From a virus, in UHGV virus genome UHGV-0145637: a stretch of DNA of 39,764 nucleotides. The stretch is one strand, 5' to 3'. Positions within the stretch are counted from its first letter, which is position 1, and each line of letters starts with the position of its first letter. Shown here in pieces: positions 7,414 to 39,764 of the stretch. The notes below the pieces were generated by a model. The model was not told the DNA's origin, did no database searches, and saw nothing but the letters and a program-made list of their open reading frames with translations. The position numbers were made by a program, and so were the translations under genes.

Positions 7414-7965
7414 ATGATGAAATTACAACCCATGGGACTAAAAGGTCGCGCCCCCGCTCATGTCCGTCCGTGGACACCTGAAGAAGATGCGCTGCTGATT
7501 GCGCTTTATTCATCCACCCCGGTTAAGGATATTGCTGCCAGAATAAAAAGAACTGTCTGGGCTGTATATAACCGGACTGGTGTATTGCGCAGTTCATACC
7601 CGGAGTTACTGAAATATAAACACCCAAGATTTACACCTGATGAAGATAAGTTTATTCGAAAAAATGCCAGAACAATGACCTGCCAGCAAATGGGAGAATA
7701 TCTCGGACGTAATAAAGATTCTGTCAGATGTCGGGCAGGAATGATTGGTGCTGGATTAACAAAGTGCGGAGAGTTACGCCCCGGCACGCACATATCTGAT
7801 GATGATGTACGTCTTATACGTGCGCTGCGTGATTCCGATTACCCACGCCGTCTGTCATTCCGGGAAATTGGCGAAAAGTTTGGAATATCTGAACATTCTG
7901 CTCACGCAGTTTATTACCGTCGCCGGACTGCCGAGGACGCTGTATTACGGGAGTTAACGCCATGA
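7414..7965 (+). CDS. Putative DNA-binding protein with two Myb/SANT-like repeats and a C-terminal HTH-like segment
   Basis: Repeats WTPEEDALLIALY...IAARIKRT and FTPDEDKFIRKNAR...LGRNKDSVRCR fit the Myb/SANT pattern. Confidence 0.45.
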   Translation: MMKLQPMGLKGRAPAHVRPWTPEEDALLIALYSSTPVKDIAARIKRTVWAVYNRTGVLRSSYPELLKYKHPRFTPDEDKFIRKNARTMTCQQMGEYLGRNKDSVRCRAGMIGAGLTKCGELRPGTHISDDDVRLIRALRDSDYPRRLSFREIGEKFGISEHSAHAVYYRRRTAEDAVLRELTP

Positions 7966-8291: not shown

Positions 8292-8638
8292 GAAGTTATA
8301 TTGATAATGAAAAGCTGGAGACAATAAGCGACTGTCTTAGCTTGCTGGCAAAAATCAAAGAAACTATTGAAGAGATTAAATTTCAGCTTGAATACGCACC
8401 ATGTGGCGATGATGCATGGCGTAATGCTGCCAGAAAAGCACTGGCTGTCTTTCAGAAACAACGCCGGGCTGTTGAATACCGCCTTGCTGTATTGCGCCAG
8501 GAGGAAAAGGAAAGAAATATAAGACGTCATGAACGCGTTAATGATTTCCTTGTTCGTGAATTAAAAGAGCGCGTGCCGGAGTCGGTGTTTTTTGAATGTG
8601 AGGCTATAGCCCGTAGCAAAGCACTGGAAACAGATTAA
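8288..8638 (+). CDS. Hypothetical protein (GTG start)
   Basis: GGAGGTG RBS then GTG overlapping the upstream stop (GTGA); AT-rich relative to the backbone. Confidence 0.4.
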   Translation: MRSYIDNEKLETISDCLSLLAKIKETIEEIKFQLEYAPCGDDAWRNAARKALAVFQKQRRAVEYRLAVLRQEEKERNIRRHERVNDFLVRELKERVPESVFFECEAIARSKALETD

Positions 8639-8653
8639 GCAGGCAGGTGAATA

Positions 8654-8962
8654 ATGAGTATTGAATTAAGATCGTCTTATGAATATCGCAAAATCCTTAT
8701 CGCCGGAGGCATGAAACCGGAAGATGCAGAGAAATTCGTTTCTTTTATGGATAAAGAATGTGACAAGCGGGATATGCCAGAAATTATTATGGATGACATG
8801 ATTCTGGATTCAGCCGTGGCGTTAAGTCCGTTATGGATTGTGCATACTCTTGCGGAAATAGCTAAAAGAAGTGACAAGCAGGCGGCTGTCGCCGCCCTGC
8901 GATTACTGGCTGAATTAAGTTGTTCAGTCAATCCCAATACGTTCTTTGACGAACCTGGTTAA
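8654..8962 (+). CDS. Hypothetical protein
   Basis: 102-aa ORF; its 3' end overlaps the convergent antisense gene. Confidence 0.4.
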   Translation: MSIELRSSYEYRKILIAGGMKPEDAEKFVSFMDKECDKRDMPEIIMDDMILDSAVALSPLWIVHTLAEIAKRSDKQAAVAALRLLAELSCSVNPNTFFDEPG

Positions 8963-9334
8963 CATTGATTTGGTAACTTCTTTAATTAGATCAAATGGTG
9001 CGTCTGTAAACTCCTTTTTGATTCTTTCAAGGATTGGTTTTTTTCTCAGGGCGTTAGCTAAATCATGCCCCTGCTGGGTAAGCATAATGGGCGTGTTTCT
9101 GAAACCAACGCCCAGAGAATGGAAAAAGAAACCAATATATTTGGGTGTTTCTGACTGCATATCACCATTAACAATTGAGCCATTATCAGCGAGAAGCATA
9201 AGATGAAAAACTTTTTTATCCTTTTCCTCTCCTTCTGCCTCAGCCATGCCCAGATCCTGTAGTGTAAGGAAAGGTGTTTCAGCATCCTGAAAAGTTGTGA
9301 GAATACTTAATACTTCATCGTAATCTATTTTCAT
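8924..9334 (-). CDS. Hypothetical protein encoded antisense to the early operon (moron candidate)
   Basis: 136-aa ORF on the opposite strand, markedly AT-rich, acidic N-terminal half. Confidence 0.5.
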   Translation of the reverse strand: MKIDYDEVLSILTTFQDAETPFLTLQDLGMAEAEGEEKDKKVFHLMLLADNGSIVNGDMQSETPKYIGFFFHSLGVGFRNTPIMLTQQGHDLANALRKKPILERIKKEFTDAPFDLIKEVTKSMLTRFVKERIGID

Positions 9335-9398
9335 ATCGATACCTTTAGTTTTATCCGGGCGGCGTTGCCATGCCGCCTGTTGTTACGGAGACACGATA

Positions 9399-9911
9399 AT
9401 GAATCGCGCTTCCCTGATTACCTTAATACATGTCGCAAAACGCGATCTACAGCTTGACCATGAGACCTACACATCCGTACTACTGGCAGCCACCGGCAAA
9501 CCCAGTTGCCGGGATATGTCACCGGATGAGTTATCCCGCGTGCTGGATGTTTTCAAAAAACGCGGTTTTAAAGTGCGTCAGAAGCCGGTTAACCGGGCCT
9601 TAAAACCGGGTACGGTGACCGCCAAAATTCGCGCCATCTGGAAGGTGATGCACCGGCAGGGCTTTATCTCTGATGGCGGGGAAACAGCCCTTAACCGCTG
9701 GGTGAAATCGCAGACGGCCGCTCAGAACGGCGGCGAAGGTGTGGCTAACTGGCAGTGGCTGGAACAACACCCCGCGCTGGCCTCTGATGTGCTGGAGCGT
9801 CTCAAACGCTGGCACCGCCGCAAGATGCTGGATGTGCTGGGGATGCCAGCGCGTACAGTGATGAGTTATGAGCGCGTTTGCAGGCTGTATGAAGAATCCT
9901 CCCCCTTTTAA
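9399..9911 (+). CDS. gemA: GemA/gp16-like early regulatory protein
   Basis: 170 aa; N-terminal pattern LITLIHVAKRDLQLDHETYTSVLLAATGK typical of Mu gp16 family as recalled; position before the Mor/C-family gene. Confidence 0.65.
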   Translation: MNRASLITLIHVAKRDLQLDHETYTSVLLAATGKPSCRDMSPDELSRVLDVFKKRGFKVRQKPVNRALKPGTVTAKIRAIWKVMHRQGFISDGGETALNRWVKSQTAAQNGGEGVANWQWLEQHPALASDVLERLKRWHRRKMLDVLGMPARTVMSYERVCRLYEESSPF

Positions 9912-9919
9912 CCCCAAAC

Positions 9920-9946
9920 CCCGCCACAGCGCGGGATTTTTATTTT
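9920..9946 (+). terminator. Rho-independent terminator after gemA
   Basis: Stem CCCGC / GCGGG with 6-nt loop, followed by ATTTTTATTTT. Confidence 0.6.
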
Positions 9947-9981
9947 AAACTTGCCCTGTGTAATGATGACCGGAGGCGGGT

Positions 9982-10404
9982 ATGGCTGAAACACAGATGA
10001 GCATGTTTGGTGACAGCGAACAGCTGCACGCGCTGATTGACCGTCTGGATGATATTCCTGATGATGAGCTGAAAAAGAACTGGCCCGGCACGCTGCGGGA
10101 CCTGGTTGATGTGATCAGTGCTGAACTGCACCGTCAGGGGATTGAACCTGCTCAGGCGGGAATGCTTGCCCGTAAGGTTGCAGCCGCACAGGCCGGGTAC
10201 ATGGGCGGGCGTGGTTATTATCTCCCGGTCGGTGAATCCCTTTTCACCGAACTGCGCAATAATGAAATTTTTTCCCGCTGGAGCCAGGGCGAAAAAATTG
10301 AAACCCTGCGCCGCCACTACCAGATGTCAGAGACGCAGATTTACTCCGTTATCCGCAACCAGCGTCGCCTGCATCAGGAACGCACGCAGCCACGGCTTTT
10401 CTGA
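9982..10404 (+). CDS. Mor/C-family transcription activator (middle/late)
   Basis: 140 aa; C-terminal HTH-like region (...ETLRRHYQMSETQIYSVIRNQRRL) resembles the Mor/C family as recalled; only one family member in the window. Confidence 0.7.
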   Translation: MAETQMSMFGDSEQLHALIDRLDDIPDDELKKNWPGTLRDLVDVISAELHRQGIEPAQAGMLARKVAAAQAGYMGGRGYYLPVGESLFTELRNNEIFSRWSQGEKIETLRRHYQMSETQIYSVIRNQRRLHQERTQPRLF

Positions 10405-10475
10405 TATTCCGCAAATCCTGCCCACTTTTTCCCACGGTTACGCTGACTCAGAGAACACCATGAGACAGCGTAACA

Positions 10476-10976
10476 ATGCCAAAACTCCCCGCACCCCTGC
10501 GTAAAAAGCTGATTGCCCTTGTTCTGGCCGGAGCCGGGACGTTCACCATTGCCACGCACTACACCGGCTACTGGGAAGGGAAAGAAAACACCACGTACAT
10601 TGATCCCACCGGCACCCCCACCATCTGTTACGGCCATACCGGCCCGGATGTGAAACCGGGGATGACAAAAACTGATGAAGAGTGTCTGGAGCTGCTGGAA
10701 AAGGACATGAAATGGGCCTTTGCGGCTATCGATCGTCATGTTCAGGTGCCGCTTACCCGTGGTCAGACGGTGGCGCTGGCCTCCTGGATTTTCTGGGCCG
10801 GTGAAACGAACTTTCGCAACTCCACGCTCCTGTGCCTTATCAATGCCGGGCAGATGCCCGCGTCCTGTAAGCAGTATATCCGCTGGATTTATTCAAAGGG
10901 GGTAAAACTCCCCGGTCTTGAGGCCCGCCGTTCGGCGGATGAATGGTTATGTCGTTACGATTTGCCGAAAGTCTGA
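10476..10976 (+). CDS. Endolysin, phage lysozyme type with SAR-like N-terminal segment
   Basis: Gly/Ala-rich weakly hydrophobic N-terminus (LIALVLAGAGTFTIA) followed by E-x8-D-x5-T spacing (EGKENTTYIDPTGTPT). Confidence 0.7.
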   Translation: MPKLPAPLRKKLIALVLAGAGTFTIATHYTGYWEGKENTTYIDPTGTPTICYGHTGPDVKPGMTKTDEECLELLEKDMKWAFAAIDRHVQVPLTRGQTVALASWIFWAGETNFRNSTLLCLINAGQMPASCKQYIRWIYSKGVKLPGLEARRSADEWLCRYDLPKV

Positions 10977-14962: not shown

Positions 14963-16551
14963 TGGGACGCATCATTGATACTGACGGAAAACCTTTCTCC
15001 TTTGACCCGGAGATGCAGAGTGCCGCGCTGGATATTCCGCAGATTGCCAGCCGTTATATTGAACATCCGGCTTCGGGTATCACCCCGAACCGGGCGGCGC
15101 AGTGCCTTCGCGGGGCTGAACGTGGCGATCTGATTGCCCAGTCCGATCTGGCCGCTGATATTGAAGAAAAGGACACCCACCTTTTTGCGGAGCTGGGCAA
15201 GCGACGTCTTGCCATTCAGGGGGTGCCATGGAGTATTGAGCCGCCACCGAACGCCAGCGCGAATGAGAAAAAGGACGCGGAAATGCTCGACGAATATCTG
15301 CATTCCGCAGACTGGTTTGATGCCATGCTGTTTGACGCCACGGATGCCATCCTGAAGGGCTATTCCTGCATGGAAATTGAGCACGGGATGCTCGGTAAAA
15401 TGCACATCATCCGCGCCATCCGCTGGCGTGACAGCGGGCATTTCTGCCTTAACCCGGATGATTTGAGCGAACTGCGGCTGCGTGACGGCAGCCATTCCGG
15501 GGTGGCGTTTCAGCCCTTTGGCTGGATAGTGCATCAGTCGCGTTCACGCACCGGTTACGGTGGTGCAACCGGGCTTGTCCGGACGCTTATCTGGCCGTTC
15601 ATTTTCAAAAACTATTCCGTGCGCGATCTGGCGGAATTTCTGGAGGTGTACGGCCTGCCGATGAAGGTCGGGAAATACCCGTCCGGGGCAACACCGGAGC
15701 AGAAAAGTGCCCTGATGCGGGCGGTGATGGATATCGGGCGACGTACAGGCGGGATCATCCCGGCCGGGATGTCGCTGGAGTTTCAGGCGGCAGCGAACGG
15801 TCAGGCCGATCCGTTTGAAACCATGATTTCGTGGGGGGAGCGTTCCATCTCCAAAGCAATACTCGGCGGCACGCTGACCACGGAAGCCGGAGACAAAGGC
15901 GCGCGCTCACTGGGTGAGGTACATAACGAGGTGCGCCGGGAAATCAGGGATTCTGATTTACGACAGCTGGCTGCAACCCTGAACCGCGATCTGGTGTATC
16001 CGCTGTACGCCCTGAACACCACGCACACTATTGATATCCGCCGTCTGCCACGTATCTGCTTCCAGACAAAAGAACCAGGTGATATCACCAAAATCACCAG
16101 TGCGGTGATGCAGCTCAGTACGGGGATGGATATTTCTGATCCCTGGATACGTGAGCAGACCGGTATTCCGCAGCCCACGCCCGGTGAAGCCATATTCCGT
16201 GTCCGTCAGAGTGGCAATGAACCGGCTCAGACCGACAGGGAAACACCACCGGAAAAACAGGAAAAAACAGAGCAGACGGCGCTGTCAGCCAGACTGCCGG
16301 AAGCGAAAAGCACGCCGCGTGATGAACTGGATGATATGGGGGACGCGGTGCCTGCCCGCCGCTTACAGGAGGCCATCGACCCGGTACTGGAGCCGGTCAT
16401 TGATGCCATCAGAACGCGGGGGCTGGCGGATGCGCTGGCAGACCTGCCTGCCCTTTATCGTGAAATGGATGATTCCCGCCTGATGACGCTGCTCAGTGAT
16501 GCCATGTTTGCTGCGGAAATGAAGGGGATGCTGGATGACACAGGGGATTGA
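14962..16551 (+). CDS. Portal protein (Mu gp29-like)
   Basis: 529 aa immediately after terminase; GTG start overlapping the terminase stop. Confidence 0.8.
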   Translation: MGRIIDTDGKPFSFDPEMQSAALDIPQIASRYIEHPASGITPNRAAQCLRGAERGDLIAQSDLAADIEEKDTHLFAELGKRRLAIQGVPWSIEPPPNASANEKKDAEMLDEYLHSADWFDAMLFDATDAILKGYSCMEIEHGMLGKMHIIRAIRWRDSGHFCLNPDDLSELRLRDGSHSGVAFQPFGWIVHQSRSRTGYGGATGLVRTLIWPFIFKNYSVRDLAEFLEVYGLPMKVGKYPSGATPEQKSALMRAVMDIGRRTGGIIPAGMSLEFQAAANGQADPFETMISWGERSISKAILGGTLTTEAGDKGARSLGEVHNEVRREIRDSDLRQLAATLNRDLVYPLYALNTTHTIDIRRLPRICFQTKEPGDITKITSAVMQLSTGMDISDPWIREQTGIPQPTPGEAIFRVRQSGNEPAQTDRETPPEKQEKTEQTALSARLPEAKSTPRDELDDMGDAVPARRLQEAIDPVLEPVIDAIRTRGLADALADLPALYREMDDSRLMTLLSDAMFAAEMKGMLDDTGD

Positions 16552-17866
16552 TTTAGGTTATGCCGCCACGCTTCCCTCAAAAGAGGCGGTAGCATACTTC
16601 CGTGTCAAAGGGGCGCATATCAGCTGGAACTGGTTCGAAACAGCCGCGGATGTTCATGCCCGCTCATTCACGGCAGCAAAAGCGGCACGCCTGGATGTGG
16701 TGACCACGTTACAGGCCGAAGTGCAGCGGGCCATTGATGAGGGAATTTCACAGAAAGCATTTATCCGCACGCTGACGCCACGCCTGCAAAAGCTGGGATG
16801 GTGGGGAAAGCAGATTGTGGTGGACAGCGACGGTAACGCGGAAGAAGTGCAACTGGGCAGTCCCCGTCGTCTGGCGCTGATTTACAACGTGAACACCCGG
16901 GTGGCTTACAATGCCGGGCGTTACACGCAGATGATGAACAACACGGACACGCATCCGTTCTGGCAGTATGTGGCGGTCATGGACAGCCGTACCCGCCCGT
17001 CGCATTCCGCCCTTAACGGTCTGGTATTCCGCTATGACGATCCGTTCTGGAAAACACACTACCCACCTAATGGCTGGAACTGCCGCTGCCGTGTGCGGCC
17101 ATTGTCTCAGGCTCGTCTGGATGCAATGGGGTTATCCGTTTCATCCGGTGAGGATCATCTCTCCACCCGCAATGTTGAGGCTGGCGTGGATAAACAGACC
17201 GGAGAAGTCAGAGAAATGCCGGTGACCACATATTCAGATGGCACCAGAACCATGACACCGGATGTGGGCTGGTCATATAACCCCGGCTCGGCAGCGTTCG
17301 GCACAGACCAGGCGCTGATCCGCAAACTGATCGAGGTGAAAAGCCCGGCGTTACGGGAAATGGTGGTTCAGGAGATGAACAACAGCCCGGAGCGGCAGCT
17401 GGCGTTCCGCATCTGGGCAAAAAACATCATGCAGACCCGGCGAGGTGGTAACGATATCCGCACGCTGGGCTTTATGACTGAAAGCATTGCGCAGGCAGTG
17501 GAAAGCCGGACGGGAACGCCACCGGCCCGCCTGCTGGCGATGAGCGGTAAAAATGTGCTCCATGCAGACAGTGTGAAACATCAGAATGACGGCATCGCCC
17601 TGATGCCAGAGGACTTCGGGCGCTTACCGGCAATGCTGGCAAAGCCAAAAGCGGTGCTGTGGGACAAACGGCACAAAAATCTGATGTATATCGTGGAAAA
17701 TAAGGATGGCAGTGTGCAGATTGCCGTTAATGCACCGTACAGTCTGAAACGTCAGCCCGACAAACTGGATGTGATTGTGAATGCTTACCGGGTTATCAAT
17801 ATGGATAAGCTGAAATCGGATATCCGGGGCGGAATGCTTGAGGTGCTGGAAGGACAAATTGATTAA
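16535..17866 (+). CDS. Head morphogenesis protein (Mu F-like)
   Basis: 443 aa following portal, as in Mu. Confidence 0.7.
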   Translation: MTQGIDLGYAATLPSKEAVAYFRVKGAHISWNWFETAADVHARSFTAAKAARLDVVTTLQAEVQRAIDEGISQKAFIRTLTPRLQKLGWWGKQIVVDSDGNAEEVQLGSPRRLALIYNVNTRVAYNAGRYTQMMNNTDTHPFWQYVAVMDSRTRPSHSALNGLVFRYDDPFWKTHYPPNGWNCRCRVRPLSQARLDAMGLSVSSGEDHLSTRNVEAGVDKQTGEVREMPVTTYSDGTRTMTPDVGWSYNPGSAAFGTDQALIRKLIEVKSPALREMVVQEMNNSPERQLAFRIWAKNIMQTRRGGNDIRTLGFMTESIAQAVESRTGTPPARLLAMSGKNVLHADSVKHQNDGIALMPEDFGRLPAMLAKPKAVLWDKRHKNLMYIVENKDGSVQIAVNAPYSLKRQPDKLDVIVNAYRVINMDKLKSDIRGGMLEVLEGQID

Positions 17867-17987
17867 CGGTCAGTGGCGGGGGTCGAACCCGCATACATGA
17901 TCCACCCGGAGGCAGGCACCGACTTTACCAGTTAAGCGTACACTGACCGCCTGTTTATTTTATATTCATCCTTTATGCGGAGGCAAT

Positions 17988-18461
17988 ATGTCATCCATTG
18001 ATGCCGCTGTCGTTGTTGACGTTACGCGTCTCCAGCGGGTGTTTGCCCGGCTTCAGTTTGTGGGCGGCGGAAAAGACCTGGCCCGCAGTGTGGCGGAGAG
18101 TCTTCTGTCATCGTCAGAAATGGCGTTTGAACAGGAAAAAGAGCCGGACGGCGAACGCTGGCATGACTGGTCAGATCCTTACCGCAAGTGGCGTACCCGT
18201 AAGGGATACACGCCCGGCAAAATCCTGACACTGAACGGCGATCTGGCCCGCCGCCTGACCACGGATTATGGCGATACCTGGGCGCTGATTGGATCAAATG
18301 AACCTTATGCGGCCATTCATCAGTGGGGTGGCCTGCCTGGTATGCCACCGGGACCGGCGGCCATTGGCGCACGTCCGTATATGGGCTTTGATCAGGTGGC
18401 AGAACAGGAGATCATGGACGAAATCAGAAAACGCTTTAAAAAGGCCACAGAAACGCCGTAA
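17988..18461 (+). CDS. Virion morphogenesis protein (Mu G-like)
   Basis: 157 aa; position between F-like and I-like genes. Confidence 0.6.
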   Translation: MSSIDAAVVVDVTRLQRVFARLQFVGGGKDLARSVAESLLSSSEMAFEQEKEPDGERWHDWSDPYRKWRTRKGYTPGKILTLNGDLARRLTTDYGDTWALIGSNEPYAAIHQWGGLPGMPPGPAAIGARPYMGFDQVAEQEIMDEIRKRFKKATETP

Positions 18462-18638
18462 TGGTTTAAGGTATACAAACGCATTGCCTTACCCTCTTCA
18501 GGCGCGTGTCGTGATTTTCTAACCTGTATTTAACGGGCTTTAAAATCTGCGTGAAGCGCCTTTCTCATTTTTCCCCTGTCAGCACTTTCTGAAGTCCCGC
18601 AAAACCGGCCCCGAAAAACACCGGCTTATGCTGCCGGA
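18462..18638. other. Non-coding gap between G-like and I-like genes; candidate strong gyrase site
   Basis: 177-bp ORF-free gap in an otherwise tightly packed operon, near the genome centre, at the same gene junction where the Mu strong gyrase site lies. Confidence 0.4.
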
Positions 18639-32040: not shown

Positions 32041-32921
32041 TGTTTCATGTTGATAATAATTCCGGCGTGGCGAATATGCCTGCGCTGGCACCGGCGCAGA
32101 GTAATACCACCACCTGGTTTACCGAAGGTGACGGACAAAAAGGTATCAGCTGGATTGGTCAGGACTGGCTGAATATTCTCCAGGCCGAACTGCTGAATAT
32201 TCTGGCTGAAGCCAGTATTCAGCCGGATAAGGCGCAGTTAAACCAGCTTACGCTGTCCATTAAAGCCATTATCGCTGCGAATGCCTTTTCCCGGAAAAAT
32301 AACCTGAAAGAAATTGCTGATGCCGGTGCGGAGGCCCAGCGTCTGGCCCGTGGTTATCTTGGTCTGGGGACGCTTGCCACAAAAAACAGTCTTGGTCCCG
32401 CTGACGTTAATGCCCTGGCGAAGGATCAGAATCTCGCCGACCTGGAGAATAAGGGAACCGCCCGTAATAATCTGGATGTTTACAGCAAAAGCGAAGGTGA
32501 TAACCGTTACCTGCGCAGGGAGCAGAACGGCGCAGACATTCCGGATAAAGGGGCTTTTATCGATAACGTCGGTTTACGGGAAACGGTAAACAGGGCGGCG
32601 AATGCCCTGCCATCGGACGGCACCGCCGTTGCCGCGAACAGGCTGGCAAATGCCCACACAATTAATGGTGTTCCCTTTGACGGGACGCAGGATATCACTA
32701 TCTCATCAGGAACAGTAACCGCCATAAGACTGGGGTCGGTGACCGCACATATGCCCGGAACATGGGAAAGCTGGGATCTGAATCTGGGGGGCGGCAATGT
32801 TCTTACCGGAATTAAAGTACAGGATGTCGGTAAGAATACGGCAGATAACGTCGGCGGCGTGTATTACCGGCCGTTGCAGTATCTGTTAAATGGAGCATGG
32901 GTGACGGCTGCAAGTATATAA
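32040..32921 (+). CDS. Tail fibre protein (Mu S-like), C-terminus inside the invertible segment
   Basis: N-terminus [20 protein letters not shown]...WFTEG resembles Mu/P1 S as recalled; the crossover site lies inside the gene. Confidence 0.8.
32557..32700. repeat. Left inverted repeat of the invertible segment, with gix/hix-like 26-bp crossover site at 32557..32582
   Basis: Site TTATCGATAACG-TC-GGTTTACGGGAA; the following ~70 bp are near-identical to the reverse complement of 33815..33885, with weaker similarity to ~32700. Confidence 0.75.
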
Positions 32922-32930
32922 TGATATTCA

Positions 32931-32954
32931 GAAGGCCTTCCGGCCTTCTTTATT
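32931..32954 (+). terminator. Rho-independent terminator after the tail fibre gene
   Basis: 7-bp stem GAAGGCC / GGCCTTC, loop TTCC, followed by TTTATT; overlaps the stop of the convergent tfa gene. Confidence 0.6.
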
Positions 32955-33474
32955 ACTGTGGCTGCTCAGGCCATTTAATGGCGTTAAATTCAGCTTCTGT
33001 TTTAATGGCGGGTAGTTCCATTTTCTTCACCTGACTGATGTATGCCATCCATTGGGTAAGTGCTGCTCTGTCTTCATCGCTGATGGTGCCCAGTTGTAGC
33101 TCCGTTCTCCAGTCATTAATTTTTTCATATGCCTGATTAAGATATGACTGGCGCATTGCTTCCAGTTTTCTTGCGTAGTTAACCGGAATACGGGAGATTA
33201 TGCCATTATCAAACTTCCAGTTTCCTGAAATATCCGTGCCTTCAGGGAGTTCATCGACCTCAACCACAGAAAACCCCGCAGGATACAGCGCCGAGGCGTC
33301 CTGTGATATTGAGCAGATAACGCCGCTGTCAGGTGTTATGCAAAGTTTATATTTTTTGGTGAATAATGGCAGGGATTCGTAGAAATCCTTACCATCTTCA
33401 CTCTGGAAATACTGAACATTATTACCATATGGCATATTTTCAGGATAATAACGGGTTATATTTTTTAGTTCCAT
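32953..33474 (-). CDS. Tail fibre assembly chaperone (Tfa / U-like), inside the invertible segment
   Basis: 173 aa on the minus strand with AGGAGG RBS, directly downstream of the alternative fibre C-terminus; C-terminal ...AIKWPEQPQ resembles Tfa endings. Confidence 0.7.
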   Translation of the reverse strand: MELKNITRYYPENMPYGNNVQYFQSEDGKDFYESLPLFTKKYKLCITPDSGVICSISQDASALYPAGFSVVEVDELPEGTDISGNWKFDNGIISRIPVNYARKLEAMRQSYLNQAYEKINDWRTELQLGTISDEDRAALTQWMAYISQVKKMELPAIKTEAEFNAIKWPEQPQ

Positions 33475-33525
33475 AAAATCCTCCTGGAAATAAATCTGTT
33501 TTAAAATATATTATTTACTGACTAT

Positions 33526-33885
33526 TTATAACTGAGATACCGTAATCCATGTACCTCCGACTAATTTTTGCAGGGGTCTGAATGCTATAAAATCGTTTGA
33601 AGCATCAACTTTACTGTCAATCTGCAGGCCTGCCATAACATTACCGTACGCAGAGTAATATGCCCCACCGTACATTACCTGCCTGTTCTCTGCTCCCAGC
33701 CTGATATCCTGGATATATCGGGAATCCGCATCCTGCTGTGTTATACCAGAAGTGATGTTTATGTCCTGCGTCCCGTCAAAGGGAACCCCATTAATATTTC
33801 TTGGGGTGGCGAGTCTATTCGCGGCAACGGCGGTGCCGTCCGATGGCAGAGCATTCGCCGCCCTGTTTACCGTTTCCCGTAAACC
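33526..33885 (-). other. Alternative tail-fibre C-terminal cassette (S'v), start-codon-less
   Basis: Minus-strand frame is open for 119 codons from the crossover site ([17 protein letters not shown]... to ...GGTWITVSQL stop), in register with the fibre frame. Confidence 0.7.
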
Positions 33886-33899
33886 GAGGTTTTCAGGAA
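33760..33899. repeat. Right inverted repeat, with gix/hix-like crossover site at 33874..33899
   Basis: Reverse complement reads TTCCTGAAAACC-TC-GGTTTACGGGAA, sharing the half-site GGTTTACGGGAA and central TC with the left site. Confidence 0.75.
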
Positions 33900-33964
33900 A
33901 GCCAGGATTAACTCTGTTTTATTCCTCATGCGACAATTCCGGCTTTTTATAATAAGGAAATCGT

Positions 33965-34537
33965 ATGCTGATTGGGTATATCAGGGTGTCAACAAATGAC
34001 CAGAATACGGCGCTACAAAGAAATGCGCTGGAATGTGCAGGATGTGAGCTGTTTTTCGAAGACAGAATAAGCGGTAAGACAAGGGAGCGTCCCGGACTTA
34101 AACGCGCATTAAAGCGACTCCGGCCAGGGGATACCCTGCTGGTCTGGAAACTGGATCGCCTTGGACGCAGTATGCAGCACCTTGTCCTTTTAACAGAAGA
34201 ACTCCGGCAACGCGGCGTTAACTTCCGCAGCATTACGGACAATATTGATACATCCACTCCCATGGGACGTTTCTTTTTCCATATAATGGGCGCGCTGGCG
34301 GAAATGGAGCGGGAACTCATTATTGAACGTACACGCGCGGGTCTTGCTGCTGCCCGTGCTCAGGGGCGTCATGGCGGCAGACCTCAGAAACTGACAGAGA
34401 AAGAGCGGGAGCAAATCGCCCGTTTGCTGGCTAATGGCGAGTCCCGTAAACAAATCGCACTGATATTTGATATTGGCCTTTCCACCCTTTATCGTTATTT
34501 TCCTGCCTCACCAGCTCCGTCACCAAAAGTACCGTGA
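33965..34537 (+). CDS. gin: Serine recombinase DNA invertase (Gin/Hin/Cin/Pin family)
   Basis: MLIGYIRVSTNDQNTALQRNAL... with catalytic-serine motif and C-terminal HTH; near-colinear with Mu Gin as recalled. Confidence 0.9.
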   Translation: MLIGYIRVSTNDQNTALQRNALECAGCELFFEDRISGKTRERPGLKRALKRLRPGDTLLVWKLDRLGRSMQHLVLLTEELRQRGVNFRSITDNIDTSTPMGRFFFHIMGALAEMERELIIERTRAGLAAARAQGRHGGRPQKLTEKEREQIARLLANGESRKQIALIFDIGLSTLYRYFPASPAPSPKVP

Positions 34538-34622
34538 CGCTTTTTTGAATTTCCGCAAAACACATATTTTTCAGCGGTCGCTATTCTGACTCTGTTTAAT
34601 TCAGAAACAGGCAGAAAAGACG

Positions 34623-36677
34623 ATGTCAGACTCCAAGTGGAAAATGCTCTCCGCCATGCCCGGAGAGTTTTCAGTCAAGGTTGCCGGTGGCACGGTGGCA
34701 TTTATTGAAAGCCCTTTCCGCCCTTCGGGTAATAAAGGGGGGATCACCTTCGCAGACTGCGTGATCCGCTTCAGCACGAAAGAGCCATTATGGGTAATGC
34801 CGGTATCCGGTAATCCCAGTGCAGAAATCACCAGTTCAGGCGTGACTGGCATCATTCCAATCACATCTGACGTGGCCGGAACGCTCACGCCCTCCGACTG
34901 GAATGCACCGGATAACGCCGGGCCTTCCGGTAGCACGAATGGCAGCAGTTCAGAGCCGGAATATTACTTTGTTGTCATTCTCGCGGGTCAGTCAAATGGC
35001 ATGGCCTACGGCGAGGGGCTGCCGTTACCGGATTCGTTTGACCGCCCGGACCCACGCATTAAGCAACTGGCACGCCGCAGTACGGTAACGCCCAACGGTA
35101 CGTCGTGTACATACAACGACATCATTCCGGCAGACCACTGCCTGCATGATGTTCAGGATATGAGCGGGATAAACCACCCGAAAGCTGATCTGGCAAAAGG
35201 CCAGTACGGGACTGTCGGTCAGGGGTTGCATATTGCCAAAAAACTGCTTCCCTATATCCCACAGAATGCCGGGATACTTCTGGTGCCCTGTTGTCGTGGC
35301 GGGTCAGCATTCACCACTGGAGCCGACGGCTCATTCAGTGAGGCCAGCGGTGCTTCCGCTGATTCTTCACGCTGGGGGGCCGGTAAACCTCTGTATCAGG
35401 ACCTGGTAAGCCGCACCAAAGTCGCGCTGGCGAAAAACCCGAAAAACAAACTTCTGGCTGTGGTCTGGATGCAGGGAGAGGCAGACCTTGCCTCAGGAAG
35501 CCAGCAGCATAATAGTTTATTCACGGCCATGGTTCAGCAGTTCAGAACTGACCTGGCTCCGCTTGCTGCGCAGTGCGTGAGTGGAAATGCCACCACGGTG
35601 CCGTGGATTTGCGGTGATACCACGTATTACTGGAAAAACGCTGGCACCGATAAATATGAGGCAGTATACGGTGGCTACAAAGGCAAGGAAGCACAGAAAA
35701 TTTTCTTTGTACCGTTCCTGACGGATGAGAATGGACAGAGCACGCCAACGAATGCTCCGGCGGAAGACCCGGATATTGTGGCTGTCGGGTATTACGGTGC
35801 AGCATCCCGAACCCAGGGCAGTTTTGTTTCGACACAGCGTGACAGCCATTTCAGCTCATGGGCACGCAGGGGCGTCATTTCAGACCGTCTGGCCTCAGCT
35901 ATTATGCTCCATGCAGGGCGCACGGCTGAACTGATGCGCGGGCAGACCGTGACACCACCGGATGAGAAGCCGTCACCTGATACACCATCAAAACCGTCCA
36001 CGCCACCCGCAGACACCACGACGATGAGTACGCTATTTGCTTACCGGGCATCTGAGTCTGAAGGACGGTTGACACCACAGGGTTGGGCTGCCGGAGGTGG
36101 CAAGGCTCAAATCGTGGATGATGCCGGAGCCAGCGGGGGTAAGGCAATGAAACTGACCAAGGAAACAGGAAGAGCCCCCTGGTACCTTGAGCATGATGCT
36201 GGTAATGGTGCGGACCTGCTGGGTAAAGGTGGTCTTGTCAGTTGTCGTTTTAAACTCGATGGCGCGCTTACGGCTAATCAGTACGCACTGGCGCTGTACT
36301 GGCCGGTTTCTGCCCTGCCGCAAGGGGTTACTCTGGAAGGAAATGCCGGTCATAACCTGCTGGCATCGTTCTACGTACAGAGCGATGCCACAGACCTTAA
36401 CGTGATGTATCACAAAGGAAACACGGCGCAGAACACGAAGCTGGGGTCATTCGGCGCATTTAATAACGAATGGCATACGCTGGGCTTCCGTTTTGCCGGT
36501 AACAACAGTATTGAGGTGACACCGGTCATTGATGGTAAGGACGGGACACCATTCATGCTGTCGCAGTCTCCGGTCGGCACGTTTACGGCAGACAAGTTGC
36601 GCGTGACCGATATCACTAAAAATGCGACTTACCCGGTACTGATTGACAGTATCGTGGTGGAAGTGAATAACGCGTAA
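34623..36677 (+). CDS. SGNH-type (sialate-O-acetylesterase-like) esterase domain protein with Pro/Thr linker and C-terminal beta-rich domain
   Basis: Motifs VILAGQSNGMAYGEG and VVWMQGEAD; linker PPDEKPSPDTPSKPSTPPADTTT; about 210-aa C-terminal domain; no N-terminal signal peptide. Confidence 0.5.
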   Translation: MSDSKWKMLSAMPGEFSVKVAGGTVAFIESPFRPSGNKGGITFADCVIRFSTKEPLWVMPVSGNPSAEITSSGVTGIIPITSDVAGTLTPSDWNAPDNAGPSGSTNGSSSEPEYYFVVILAGQSNGMAYGEGLPLPDSFDRPDPRIKQLARRSTVTPNGTSCTYNDIIPADHCLHDVQDMSGINHPKADLAKGQYGTVGQGLHIAKKLLPYIPQNAGILLVPCCRGGSAFTTGADGSFSEASGASADSSRWGAGKPLYQDLVSRTKVALAKNPKNKLLAVVWMQGEADLASGSQQHNSLFTAMVQQFRTDLAPLAAQCVSGNATTVPWICGDTTYYWKNAGTDKYEAVYGGYKGKEAQKIFFVPFLTDENGQSTPTNAPAEDPDIVAVGYYGAASRTQGSFVSTQRDSHFSSWARRGVISDRLASAIMLHAGRTAELMRGQTVTPPDEKPSPDTPSKPSTPPADTTTMSTLFAYRASESEGRLTPQGWAAGGGKAQIVDDAGASGGKAMKLTKETGRAPWYLEHDAGNGADLLGKGGLVSCRFKLDGALTANQYALALYWPVSALPQGVTLEGNAGHNLLASFYVQSDATDLNVMYHKGNTAQNTKLGSFGAFNNEWHTLGFRFAGNNSIEVTPVIDGKDGTPFMLSQSPVGTFTADKLRVTDITKNATYPVLIDSIVVEVNNA

Positions 36678-37877: not shown

Positions 37878-37964
37878 TGATCAAACTCATAAATTTTCGC
37901 TAATGACATTTCGTGTTATTTGTTGTATCAATTAAATAAATCAAATCGATCGTTTTTGTCGATC
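37878..37964. promoter_or_regulatory. GATC cluster with inverted repeat upstream of com-mom
   Basis: GATC at 37878, 37948 and 37961; the last two lie in the palindrome AATCGATCG-TTTTTGT-CGATCGATT, about 50 bp before the com start. Confidence 0.5.
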
Positions 37965-38011
37965 GATTGAGTGATAAAGATATCAACAACAAAGCAGGAG
38001 GTTATGCGGCC

Positions 38012-38212
38012 ATGTATCGAAACATACGGTGCCGACATTGTAACAAGCTACTGGCACGAGCCAGCTTCAGTTATCTGGAAGTTAAATGTCCGCGCTGTAA
38101 AACCCTCAATCAAATCACATCTCAGAGCGCCACAGAGCACCCCACATACACAAGGAAATCCTGTCGTGGGGAACAGAAAGCAAGTTACATCCCGTATCAT
38201 CAGCACGCCTGA
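38012..38212 (+). CDS. com: Com zinc-finger translational activator of mom
   Basis: [10 protein letters not shown]...EVKCPRCK matches the Mu Com zinc finger as recalled (IRCKNCNKLL...IRCPRCK); GCAGGAGG RBS; start at the internal Met of the track ORF. Confidence 0.8.
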
Positions 38213-38903
38213 ACTTATTCACTATAACGACAATATCGTCGGTTATGGCTCCCGTGAGTTACGGGTTGAGACAATAAGTTGCTGGCTGGCCCGGCTGGTC
38301 GTCGTCAATAAACATTACAGCCATCGTTTCGTAAATAATTCCTACCTTCATCTGGGCATATTTTCAGAACGGGAGCTGGTTGGCGTAATGCAATGGGGTT
38401 ATGCCCTTAATCCAAACAATGGTGCACGCGTCGTAACTGGCACGCAGAACCGCGAATATATGGAGCTTAACCGGTTATGGCTGCATGACTGTATGCCGAG
38501 AAACTCCGAATCAAGGGCAATCAGTTACGCGCTCAAACTAATCAGACAACTTTATCCGCAGGTGCAGTGGGTTCAGTCGTTTGCAGATGAGCGTTGTGGC
38601 TGTCTTGGTGTCGTGTACCAGGCAAGCAATTTTGATTATGTAGGCAGTCATGAAACAACATTCTATGAACTTGATGGCGAGTGGTATCACGAGATTTGCA
38701 AGAATGCAATCAAACGAGGAGGACAGCGAGGTGAACATCTGCGGGCTAATATCGACAGAGCCAGTGTTCATAAATTCCGTCAGTTTCGTTACATCCGGTT
38801 TCTGGACAAGAGAGCCAGAAAACGCCTTAACACAAAGCTATTCAAAGTCCAGCCTTACCCAAAACCACAAACAGTTAAAACTGGTTTGAAAGAGAGTGAA
38901 TGA
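38166..38903 (+). CDS. mom: Mom-like DNA modification protein
   Basis: 246-aa frame beginning inside the 3' end of com (GTG at 38166 with AGGAAA upstream), as in Mu; assigned by position and size only. Confidence 0.55.
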
Positions 38904-38944: not shown

Positions 38945-39036
38945 ATTTAGTATCAAATAAGTTGCGTATCGGCGTTTTTCAGCGGTATCAAATGAAATGC
39001 AAATCGGTATCAAAAAAATCGCCGCGCTATAATACA
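38945..39036. repeat. Right-end region with three GTATCAAA repeats (attR-like) and putative terminus ...TAATACA
   Basis: GTATCAAA at 38950, 38985 and 39007; reverse complement of the terminus begins TGTATTATAGCG. Confidence 0.5.
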
Positions 39037-39735
39037 TGCGCTTGCTTGCGCACTCCAGCGCCAGCTGTTTGATGTCGTAGTTCGGATCGCCTTTTTTATG
39101 GTTCAGACCATCGCGAATCGCAAACACCAGTTTCGGGAACACCGCAGTTTTACGGTTTTTACCGAGGCCTGCGATACGGTTACGCAGGATAGATTCCTGA
39201 ATCAGGCGCGACTCCCAGCTGGTGCCCAGACCAAAACCAAAGGTTACAAACGGCGTCTGACCGTTGGCGGTGTGCAGGGTGTTTACTTCGTACTCCAGCG
39301 ACTGGAAGGCATCGTAGCACTCTTTAATGGTACGAGAGTTAGCGTAGCCTTCGGCGTCCGGGATGTTCCACTCTTCTGCGGTCTTGCGATGTTTGTTGTA
39401 GCTGGCGGTAACAAACGGCGCCAGCACTTCATCGATACGGTTAATGGTGGTGCCGCCATAAATATGGCTGGCGACCTGAGCAATAATCTGCGCAGTTACC
39501 GCGGTTGCCGTAGAGATCGACTTCGGCGGTTCAATCTCGGCGTTCCCCATCTTAAAGCCCTGGGTCAGCATGCCTTTCAGGTCGATCAACATGCAGTTGA
39601 ACATCGGGAAGAACGGCGAGTAATCGAGATCGTGATAGTGAATATCGCCACGCTCATGTGCCTGCACCACGTCACGCGGCAGCAGGTGCTGACGTGCATA
39701 GTGTTTAGCCACGATCCCGGCCAGCAGGTCGCGCT
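39037..39735 (-). CDS. nrdD: Host anaerobic ribonucleoside-triphosphate reductase, 5'-partial and interrupted at the phage junction
   Basis: Minus-strand translation AKHYARQHLLPRDVVQAHERGDIHYHDLDYSPFFPMFNCMLIDLKG... resembles enterobacterial NrdD as recalled; the frame runs out of the contig and degenerates on entering phage DNA after ...ECASKRMY. Confidence 0.6.
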
Positions 39736-39764
39736 CTGTCTCTTATACACATCTGACGCTGCCG
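39736..39764. other. Nextera adapter read-through (library artefact)
   Basis: CTGTCTCTTATACACATCT (reverse complement of the Tn5 mosaic end) followed by GACGCTGCCG. Confidence 0.9.

Follow-up and report, generated by a model that had tools for sequence, protein, structure and literature searches.

Gene content and setting of the prophage

The window, by which we mean the whole stretch of DNA analysed here (39,764 nucleotides, virus genome UHGV-0145637), holds a Mu-like transposable prophage in which a gene for a small activator of the Mor/C family is situated between gemA and the lysis genes. The overall gene order is that of a Mu-like phage, with repressor, ner, A, B, small early genes, gam, a gp11-like gene and gemA in succession, followed after the gemA region by the lysis, head and tail genes, and then by a Gin-like invertase gene and com/mom. 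The features around the activator gene, together with the invertase gene, are the following.

9399-9911, + strand: gemA (Pfam GemA PF06252, E=2.8e-28; 'gp16 family protein' according to PGAP)
9920-9946, + strand: intrinsic terminator from the terminator scan, with a 5-bp G+C stem, a 6-nt loop and the T-run ATTTTTATTTT
9972-9976, + strand: Shine-Dalgarno sequence GGAGG of the activator gene, read from the sequence, 5 nt before the ATG and kept in relatives
9982-10404, + strand: Mor/C-family activator of 140 aa, C-like by sequence (Pfam Mor PF08765, E=6.7e-31)
10476-10976, + strand: endolysin gene lys, the first gene of the lysis cluster (Pfam Phage_lysozyme, E=1e-35; lysozyme according to PGAP)
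33965-34537: Gin-like serine invertase gene (Pfam Resolvase, 1.6e-51)

The gap between gemA and the activator gene is 70 nt, and 71 nt separate the stop codon of the latter from the ATG of lys. Spanin-like genes are located downstream of lys, where PGAP annotates an Rz1-like LysC after the lysozyme gene. An earlier note on this DNA had placed the activator behind a terminator and directly before the lysis genes, a position which is confirmed by the terminator at 9920-9946 and by lys only 71 nt downstream.

The prophage, which is already annotated in RefSeq, is widespread. A prophage that E. coli JE86-ST02 carries in citF matches positions 55-39031 of the window with 99-99.8% identity, while the flanks (1-54 and 39032-39764) consist of host DNA unlike that citF site, and the copy in the window has therefore been inserted elsewhere. 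A 2.2-kb segment around the activator gene is present in 231 of 5426 complete E. coli genomes (~4%), at up to four places per genome, and the identical activator protein is encoded on at least 1000 contigs. The different insertion site and the presence of up to four copies per genome are consistent with a recently active transposable phage, and an insertion site unlike that in JE86-ST02 points to recent transposition.

The tail-fibre end (32695-34540) differs from the otherwise 99.8% identical copy in JE86-ST02, and a piece of it (33740-33903) matches that copy in reverse orientation. Together with the Gin-like invertase gene this looks like an invertible host-range segment of the kind found in Mu. 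The surroundings of gemA constitute a hot spot for inserted accessory genes. In the window an opposite-strand DUF2513 gene is found there (8924-9334, - strand), the related locus L038 carries a signal-peptide protein (9496-9918) flanked by a duplicated terminator, and locus L041 carries three opposite-strand genes (8312-9887), including one for a TIR-domain protein.

The activator and the Mor/C family

The product of the ORF at 9982-10404 matches the Pfam Mor profile with 106.9 bits (cutoff 24.9), covering positions 2-107 of the 107 in the profile. Proteins of the family are small (about 100-150 aa), and their N-terminal half is acidic while the C-terminal half is basic (PMC2582627); the 140-aa product conforms to this pattern in both size and charge, with a net charge of -8 over residues 1-60 and of +6 over residues 61-140. 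The glycines G75 and G76, which belong to the beta-strand linker, are invariant among 21 aligned members. The segment YMGGRGYYLP aligns to FLGGRQFYIP in C and to HLGGGQVYIP in Mor, and the helix-turn-helix (HTH) region aligns without gaps.

The search for further members was performed with a local Mor/C HMM built from 145 diverse sequences, namely Mu Mor, Mu C, the protein of the window and 142 representatives collected by exhaustive searching, and its input was all stop-to-stop ORFs of 20 aa or more from the six reading frames. In the window a single match was obtained, the activator ORF (1.1e-51), with the next best ORF at E=2.1, while in the control on the Mu genome both C (1.5e-48) and Mor (4.4e-35) were recovered. 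When the family profile was compared by hhalign to 40 plausible genes of the window, a probability of 100% was reached by the activator ORF alone; the runner-up among these 40 was a 183-aa early protein (7414-7965), with a probability of 16% over a generic HTH stretch. No second Mor/C member was thus found in the window, either by the six-frame HMM or by hhalign of the 40 genes. This agrees with the earlier note, according to which only one member of the family is recognisable, and the profile search for a second homologue among the early genes, which that note had itself proposed, came out negative. The note had further left the choice between a simplified cascade and a diverged second activator encoded elsewhere. 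The former is supported, as mor and gp18-20 are absent, but the latter is disfavoured, given that the best other candidate reaches just 16% in hhalign. A hidden second activator was accordingly rejected, and an unannotated 140-aa ORF in L038, considered as a possible Mor, turned out to encode a signal-peptide protein instead.

Comparison with the activators of phage Mu

Textbooks describe late gene activation in Mu as a relay, in which Mor is followed by C. The activator of the window is, judged by its sequence, C-like. It shares 40% identity (111 bits) with Mu C (gp21, AF083977), which is likewise 140 aa long, and 28% identity (59 bits) with Mu Mor of the same family. A closer resemblance to C than to Mor is also the rule in the family, since 134 of 143 representatives score in this way. 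The nearest relative of Mu C (P0097, 57% identity) is itself the lone activator of a Mu-like prophage, and the most Mor-like representative (P0164) is encoded directly upstream of an endolysin gene. In MuC, motifs for binding to the clamp are found both N-terminally (Qx[D/E][L/M]F) and C-terminally (QPDLF), while Mor has the N-terminal one only (PMC12867686). The activator of the window has candidate motifs of the clamp-binding type at both ends, which are similar to the consensus but deviate from it at one position each: in the N-terminal QMSMF (residues 5-9) D/E is replaced by S, and in the C-terminal QPRLF D is replaced by R.

The gene arrangement differs from that of Mu in a well-defined way. 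In Mu, gemA is followed by mor, the terminator with the middle promoter Pm, gp18-19-20, C, the terminator with Plys, and lys, whereas in the window the order is gemA, terminator, activator and lys, with mor and gp18-20 absent. Both the Mu C gene and the activator gene are located immediately upstream of lys. However, the former is downstream of a middle operon dependent on Mor, and the latter is without such an operon; a terminator separates C from lys in Mu and none is found between the activator gene and lys in the window; and mor precedes the early terminator in Mu, while the activator gene of the window is behind it. The gene thus has the C-type position directly upstream of the lysis genes, with candidate cognate promoters at the lysis and head operons (see below), but a middle promoter dependent on a separate Mor, also characteristic of C, has no counterpart, as no second family member is present in the window or in 11 relatives. 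Nor is it of the Mor type, that is, the last early gene ahead of the terminator and driving a second activator, because it is located behind the terminator, there is no second activator and the protein is nearer to C. With mor and gp18-20 absent, and one activator where Mu has two, the best reading of the locus is therefore a one-step cascade.

The terminator between gemA and the activator gene

The terminator hairpin is formed by the arms 9920-24 and 9931-35 (CCCGC-cacagc-GCGGG, 9920-9935) and is followed by ATTTTTATTTT. It folds with -9.6 kcal/mol (z=-2.3), while in the commoner variant, which has T at 9919, the stem is 9 bp long and the fold reaches -13.5 kcal/mol; the value for the Mu terminator t9.2 is -12.2 kcal/mol. 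Relatives whose activators are 50-84% identical retain the hairpin with a variable loop, and the terminator-region sequence TTAACCCCAAAYCCCGCC...GCGGGATTTTTATTTTAAACTT is invariant in the group of relatives at ~84%. In every hairpin-bearing relative a TATnnT hexamer is placed directly 3' of the T-run, in the form of TATACT (twice in L038, once in L008), TATAGT (L006) or TATCGT (L007). The two copies in L038 stem from the insertion of a moron, by which the whole unit of terminator and TATACT was duplicated, so that one copy stays beside the activator gene. Locus L040 differs in having neither gap nor terminator, and its activator gene, being contiguous with the early genes, is therefore simply the last of these.

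A reading of the terminator dyad CCCGC-N6-GCGGG as a repeated operator was rejected. The window has 44 matches with two mismatches or fewer, against 32.7 expected, and none at the late promoters; moreover, a site centred at -43.5 would have to be further from the -10 than the centre of the hairpin, whose distance from it is only 13-18 bp.

A shared box at candidate late promoters

The regions upstream of lys and of the head protease gene I show ungapped similarity over ~50 bp, and in both a -10 hexamer begins 30 bp after the start of the same core. The corresponding 23-nt pattern has two matches in the window against 0.04 expected. A scan of the whole 39.8 kb was defined by the core CCGCAAAnCC, with one mismatch or fewer, and a TAnnnT hexamer 29-31 bp downstream. 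It returned four sites against 0.37 expected by chance, a number which was reached in none of 60 simulations, and each of the four occupies an intergenic position on the + strand with a gene immediately downstream: before lys, before the protease gene I, after the invertase gene and, with one mismatch, before the activator gene.

9912-9925, + strand: candidate activator half-box CCCCAAACCCCGCC, with one mismatch to the core CCGCAAAnCCnGCC, overlapping the 5' arm of the terminator
9941-9946, + strand: candidate -10 TATTTT within the T-run, 29 bp after the half-box start
10400-10444, + strand: candidate P_lys from pattern search and footprint, with box TCTGATATTCCGCAAATCCTGCC (10400-10422), -10 TACGCT (10439-10444) and no -35
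18588-18632, + strand: candidate P_I upstream of the head protease gene, with box TCTGAAGTCCCGCAAAACCGGCC (18588-18610) and -10 TATGCT (18627-18632)
34541-34587, + strand: late-type promoter from the box/-10 scan, after the Gin-like invertase gene, consisting of TTTTTTGAATTTCCGCAAAACA, 19 nt and TATTCT

In 29 IMG/VR loci the box and the -10 are conserved at the late promoters and the spacer is variable, which is the footprint that would be expected of an activator-dependent promoter. The three core sites are found again in a complete relative at ~88%, which has a single Mor/C ORF. The half-box before the activator gene recurs in this relative and is invariant in the 29 IMG/VR loci. It corresponds to the right half of the box only, without the TTCTGA arm of the other three sites, and has C where these have an invariant G. 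The start predicted for this candidate promoter is at ~9953, which would give a leader of 29 nt carrying the Shine-Dalgarno sequence.

The four C-dependent promoters of Mu also have a -10 but no -35, and share a conserved box upstream (PMC2582627). In an alignment of the Mu late promoters this box reads ccATAAcCCC (ATAAC/T, then CCC) and is found 28 bp upstream of the -10. The box itself is different, being CCGCAAAnCC in the window as compared to ccATAAcCCC or TTAT-N5-6-ATAA in Mu. The geometry, on the other hand, agrees with that of the Mu late promoters, and the positions correspond as well, the four sites being found where Mu has Pm, Plys, P_I and Pmom, the last directly after gin. Mu C regulates Plys, P_I, P_P and Pmom, whereas an equivalent of P_P, the promoter of the tail operon, was not found by the box scan of the window. 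As a member of the family, the activator would be expected to bind an imperfect dyad centred near -43.5 of sigma-70 promoters lacking a -35, and the sites above are candidates with the right geometry.

Some further elements were noted around these sites. The G-I gap, which in Mu holds a strong gyrase site, contains three to four direct repeats TTTTGAA[A/C]G in relatives, at a spacing of roughly 10-21 bp (L006, 18444-18524; L008, 10479-10551; L007 and L038, upstream of the protease gene), of which the window has degenerate traces only. Between the F-like (16535-17866) and G-like (17988-18461) genes there is a degenerate tRNA-like element (17868-17947, - strand), conserved in sequence in L006, L007 and L008, which scores 31 bits in a focused Rfam tRNA search (gathering threshold 29), has an oversized anticodon-arm region and is annotated by PGAP as 'tRNA-OTHER'; scans of the whole window with ARAGORN, and with Rfam at the gathering threshold, gave no match to it. 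The late-type promoter at 34541-34587 is located upstream of a 684-aa accessory gene (34623-36677, + strand) with a SASA-type carbohydrate acetylesterase domain and DUF6645, which thereby has a late-type promoter of its own, and the region of this promoter (34500-34640) had no BLAST match in the ~88% relative (L043). Upstream of com (38012-38212) a cluster of GATC sites, ATCGATCG...TCGATCGAT, occupies 37930-38011 and recalls the region of Mu mom controlled by Dam and OxyR, while the mom-like ORF ends at 38903. No box at standard spacing to a -10 was found in this com/mom upstream region with its GATC clusters.

Control of the activator gene and the late genes

The finding of four box/-10 sites, one of them before the activator gene, suggests a one-step cascade, possibly with self-activation. 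The reading we favour, with a probability of about 0.8, is that the window carries a complete Mu-like prophage of ~39 kb, in which the ORF at 9982-10404 encodes the sole Mor/C activator, that this protein activates the late genes, and that the cascade has one step. The early operon would end at gemA and the intrinsic terminator, with the activator gene just behind. Together with the sigma-70 RNA polymerase of the host, the activator would switch on box-carrying promoters with a -10 and without a -35, in which the core CCGCAAAnCC is about 28-30 bp upstream of TAnnnT. Its targets would be the lysis genes, the head protease gene and the site after the invertase gene.

As to how the activator itself is first made, slight read-through of the terminator would seed the protein, and this would then enhance transcription of the activator gene through a promoter located within the terminator (half-box 9912-9925, TATTTT 9941-9946). 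This combination of seeding and self-boost is put forward tentatively and at somewhat less than even odds. We infer a function for the half-box and its -10 from their resemblance to the other sites and, since the box before the activator gene resembles the late boxes of the phage itself, its own product rather than a separate Mor is the likely activator there. In Mu, the promoter Pm is dependent on Mor and, like the candidate element of the window, overlaps the early terminator and has a -10 without a -35 (PMC4390567). An alignment of the annotated Mu promoters places the Mor site of Pm (AGTAA-AGCCGG-TTAAT) at the same kind of location, centred at -43.5 and overlapping the early terminator. 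Among the relatives, the co-variation between half-box and late boxes is mixed. It is compatible with self-activation in the group of the window, in L038 and in L007, while the spacing of the box is off by 5-7 bp in L006, the box is missing in L008, and L040 has no gap or terminator at all. The conservation of the half-box can also be explained trivially, as AAATCCCGC...GCGGGATTT forms the extended terminator stem.

We rate self-activation of the activator gene about the same as pure read-through. In the latter case there would be no promoter before the activator, which would be the attenuated last gene of the early/gemA transcript, expressed by read-through only, and the likeness to a half-box would follow incidentally from a G+C-rich stem with an A-tract in front of it. 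The 'box' does coincide with the A-tract and the 5' stem of the hairpin, 9 bp long in most variants; the site has neither the left arm nor the G that is invariant in the other three; and spacing or box is lost in L006 and L008. Furthermore, the activator gene of L040 is contiguous with the early genes, so that at least one relative manages with simple expression as part of the early operon. Set against this are the TATnnT hexamer after the T-run in every hairpin-bearing relative, the presence of the site among just four box/-10 combinations within the 39.8 kb, its recurrence in the ~88% relative, and the preservation of the unit beside the activator gene in L038, where a moron has duplicated the terminator together with TATACT. 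Pure read-through is accordingly a serious contender, although we would not bet on it outright.

A two-step cascade, in which the first activator is not of the Mor/C type, is considered improbable. The promoter-like element before the activator gene has no -35 and therefore probably needs some activator, and the 183-aa Myb/HTH protein encoded at 7414-7965 is a candidate, with a C-terminal HTH, weak Pfam matches to Myb_DNA-binding, HTH_AsnC-type and HTH_10 (E ~1e-3) and the 16% hhalign probability against the HTH stretch of Mor. However, this protein shows no family-level similarity to Mor/C, no box specific to the upstream region of the activator gene was found, that region bears the same core box as the late promoters, and relatives such as L040 need no such step.

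Still less probable, and very unlikely to be correct, is the promoter proposed by the earlier note, TGTGTAATGAT, which is indeed present at 9957-9967 (+ strand) and would act as a constitutive extended -10 promoter of the activator gene. Its hexamer TGTAAT agrees with TATAAT at five of six positions, and a similar CCTGTG string occurs at Mu Pm and upstream of the activator gene of L041. Yet this best hexamer has G in place of the A at -11, and its TG is displaced from -15/-14; the start, ~7 nt downstream, would fall inside the Shine-Dalgarno sequence GGAGG (9972-9976); and the sigma-70 scan reports no promoter there. In addition, the ~84% group (more than 10 loci) has GGGAACGCGAGA instead, next to a terminator region that is invariant, and a lysogen would presumably be killed by constitutive transcription of a late activator gene.

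A single activator as the usual layout of transposable phages

A tblastn search with the activator against 50,697 phage records gave matches in 48. Two matching places were found in 14 of these, all of the Mu genus (Mu, D108, SfMu, Yersinia vB_YpM phages and others), and one place in the remaining 34, all outside the genus of Mu (Muvirus), which include the BcepMu group and phages of Vibrio, Shewanella, Pseudoalteromonas, Pasteurella, Klebsiella and Ralstonia. Likewise, the HMM identified exactly one Mor/C ORF in each of 10 diverged loci (42-100% identity), and one in a complete 39.3-kb relative with annotated target-site duplications. In the curated records of BcepMu and HS6, a single 'late transcriptional activator' is found beside gemA or in its vicinity. 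The literature is in line with these counts, as the 'late regulator Mor/C' is listed with GemA, TnpA and TnpB among the conserved single genes of transposable phages (PMC8705779), and in the Pseudomonas D3112 group two neighbouring core ORFs are assigned to GemA and Mor (PMC4378225). A single Mor/C gene near GemA is thus shared by BcepMu, the B3/D3112 group, Pseudoalteromonas HS6, Shewanella MuM16 and Vibrio phages (PMC8705779; PMC4378225; PMC8541194), and is in these phages, as in the window, located upstream of the late and lysis genes. One difference is that the BcepMu activator gene overlaps gemA without a terminator, whereas a conserved terminator is found between the two in the window and its closest relatives.

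A single Mor/C activator beside gemA is consequently the ordinary and already recognised layout of transposable phages, and the relay from Mor to C appears confined to Mu's own genus. The unusualness which the earlier note implied for a lone activator does not hold, this being the norm outside Muvirus (34 of 34 records; PMC8705779; PMC4378225). The prophage might conceivably be a defective derivative of Mu in which a deletion removed mor together with the middle operon, as exactly mor and gp18-20 are missing relative to Mu, but this is the least credible of the readings considered. The layout is shared by at least 11 relatives, the most distant with 42% protein identity, and by unrelated genera; 231 of 5426 complete E. 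coli genomes contain the element, some at as many as four places; the insertion site is unlike that of the 99.8% identical JE86-ST02 copy in citF, which points to recent transposition; and the identical protein is encoded on at least 1000 contigs.

Implications for the late switch of transposable phages

The main value of these results is a correction, in that a single Mor/C activator beside gemA represents the general design among transposable phages. Among 5426 complete E. coli genomes 231 carry the prophage, which makes the late switch a practical one to target in studies of its induction. Mildly new is a promoter-like element that lies inside the early terminator and carries the late-promoter box of the phage itself. 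If real, this element would offer a simple model for how a phage with one activator may delay its late genes. It would also be a model for the evolution of the two-step cascade of Mu: positive feedback gated by the terminator may have come first, and the Mu cascade may have been derived from it by duplication, with the upstream copy (mor) placed ahead of the terminator, a scenario which we regard as possible though doubtful.
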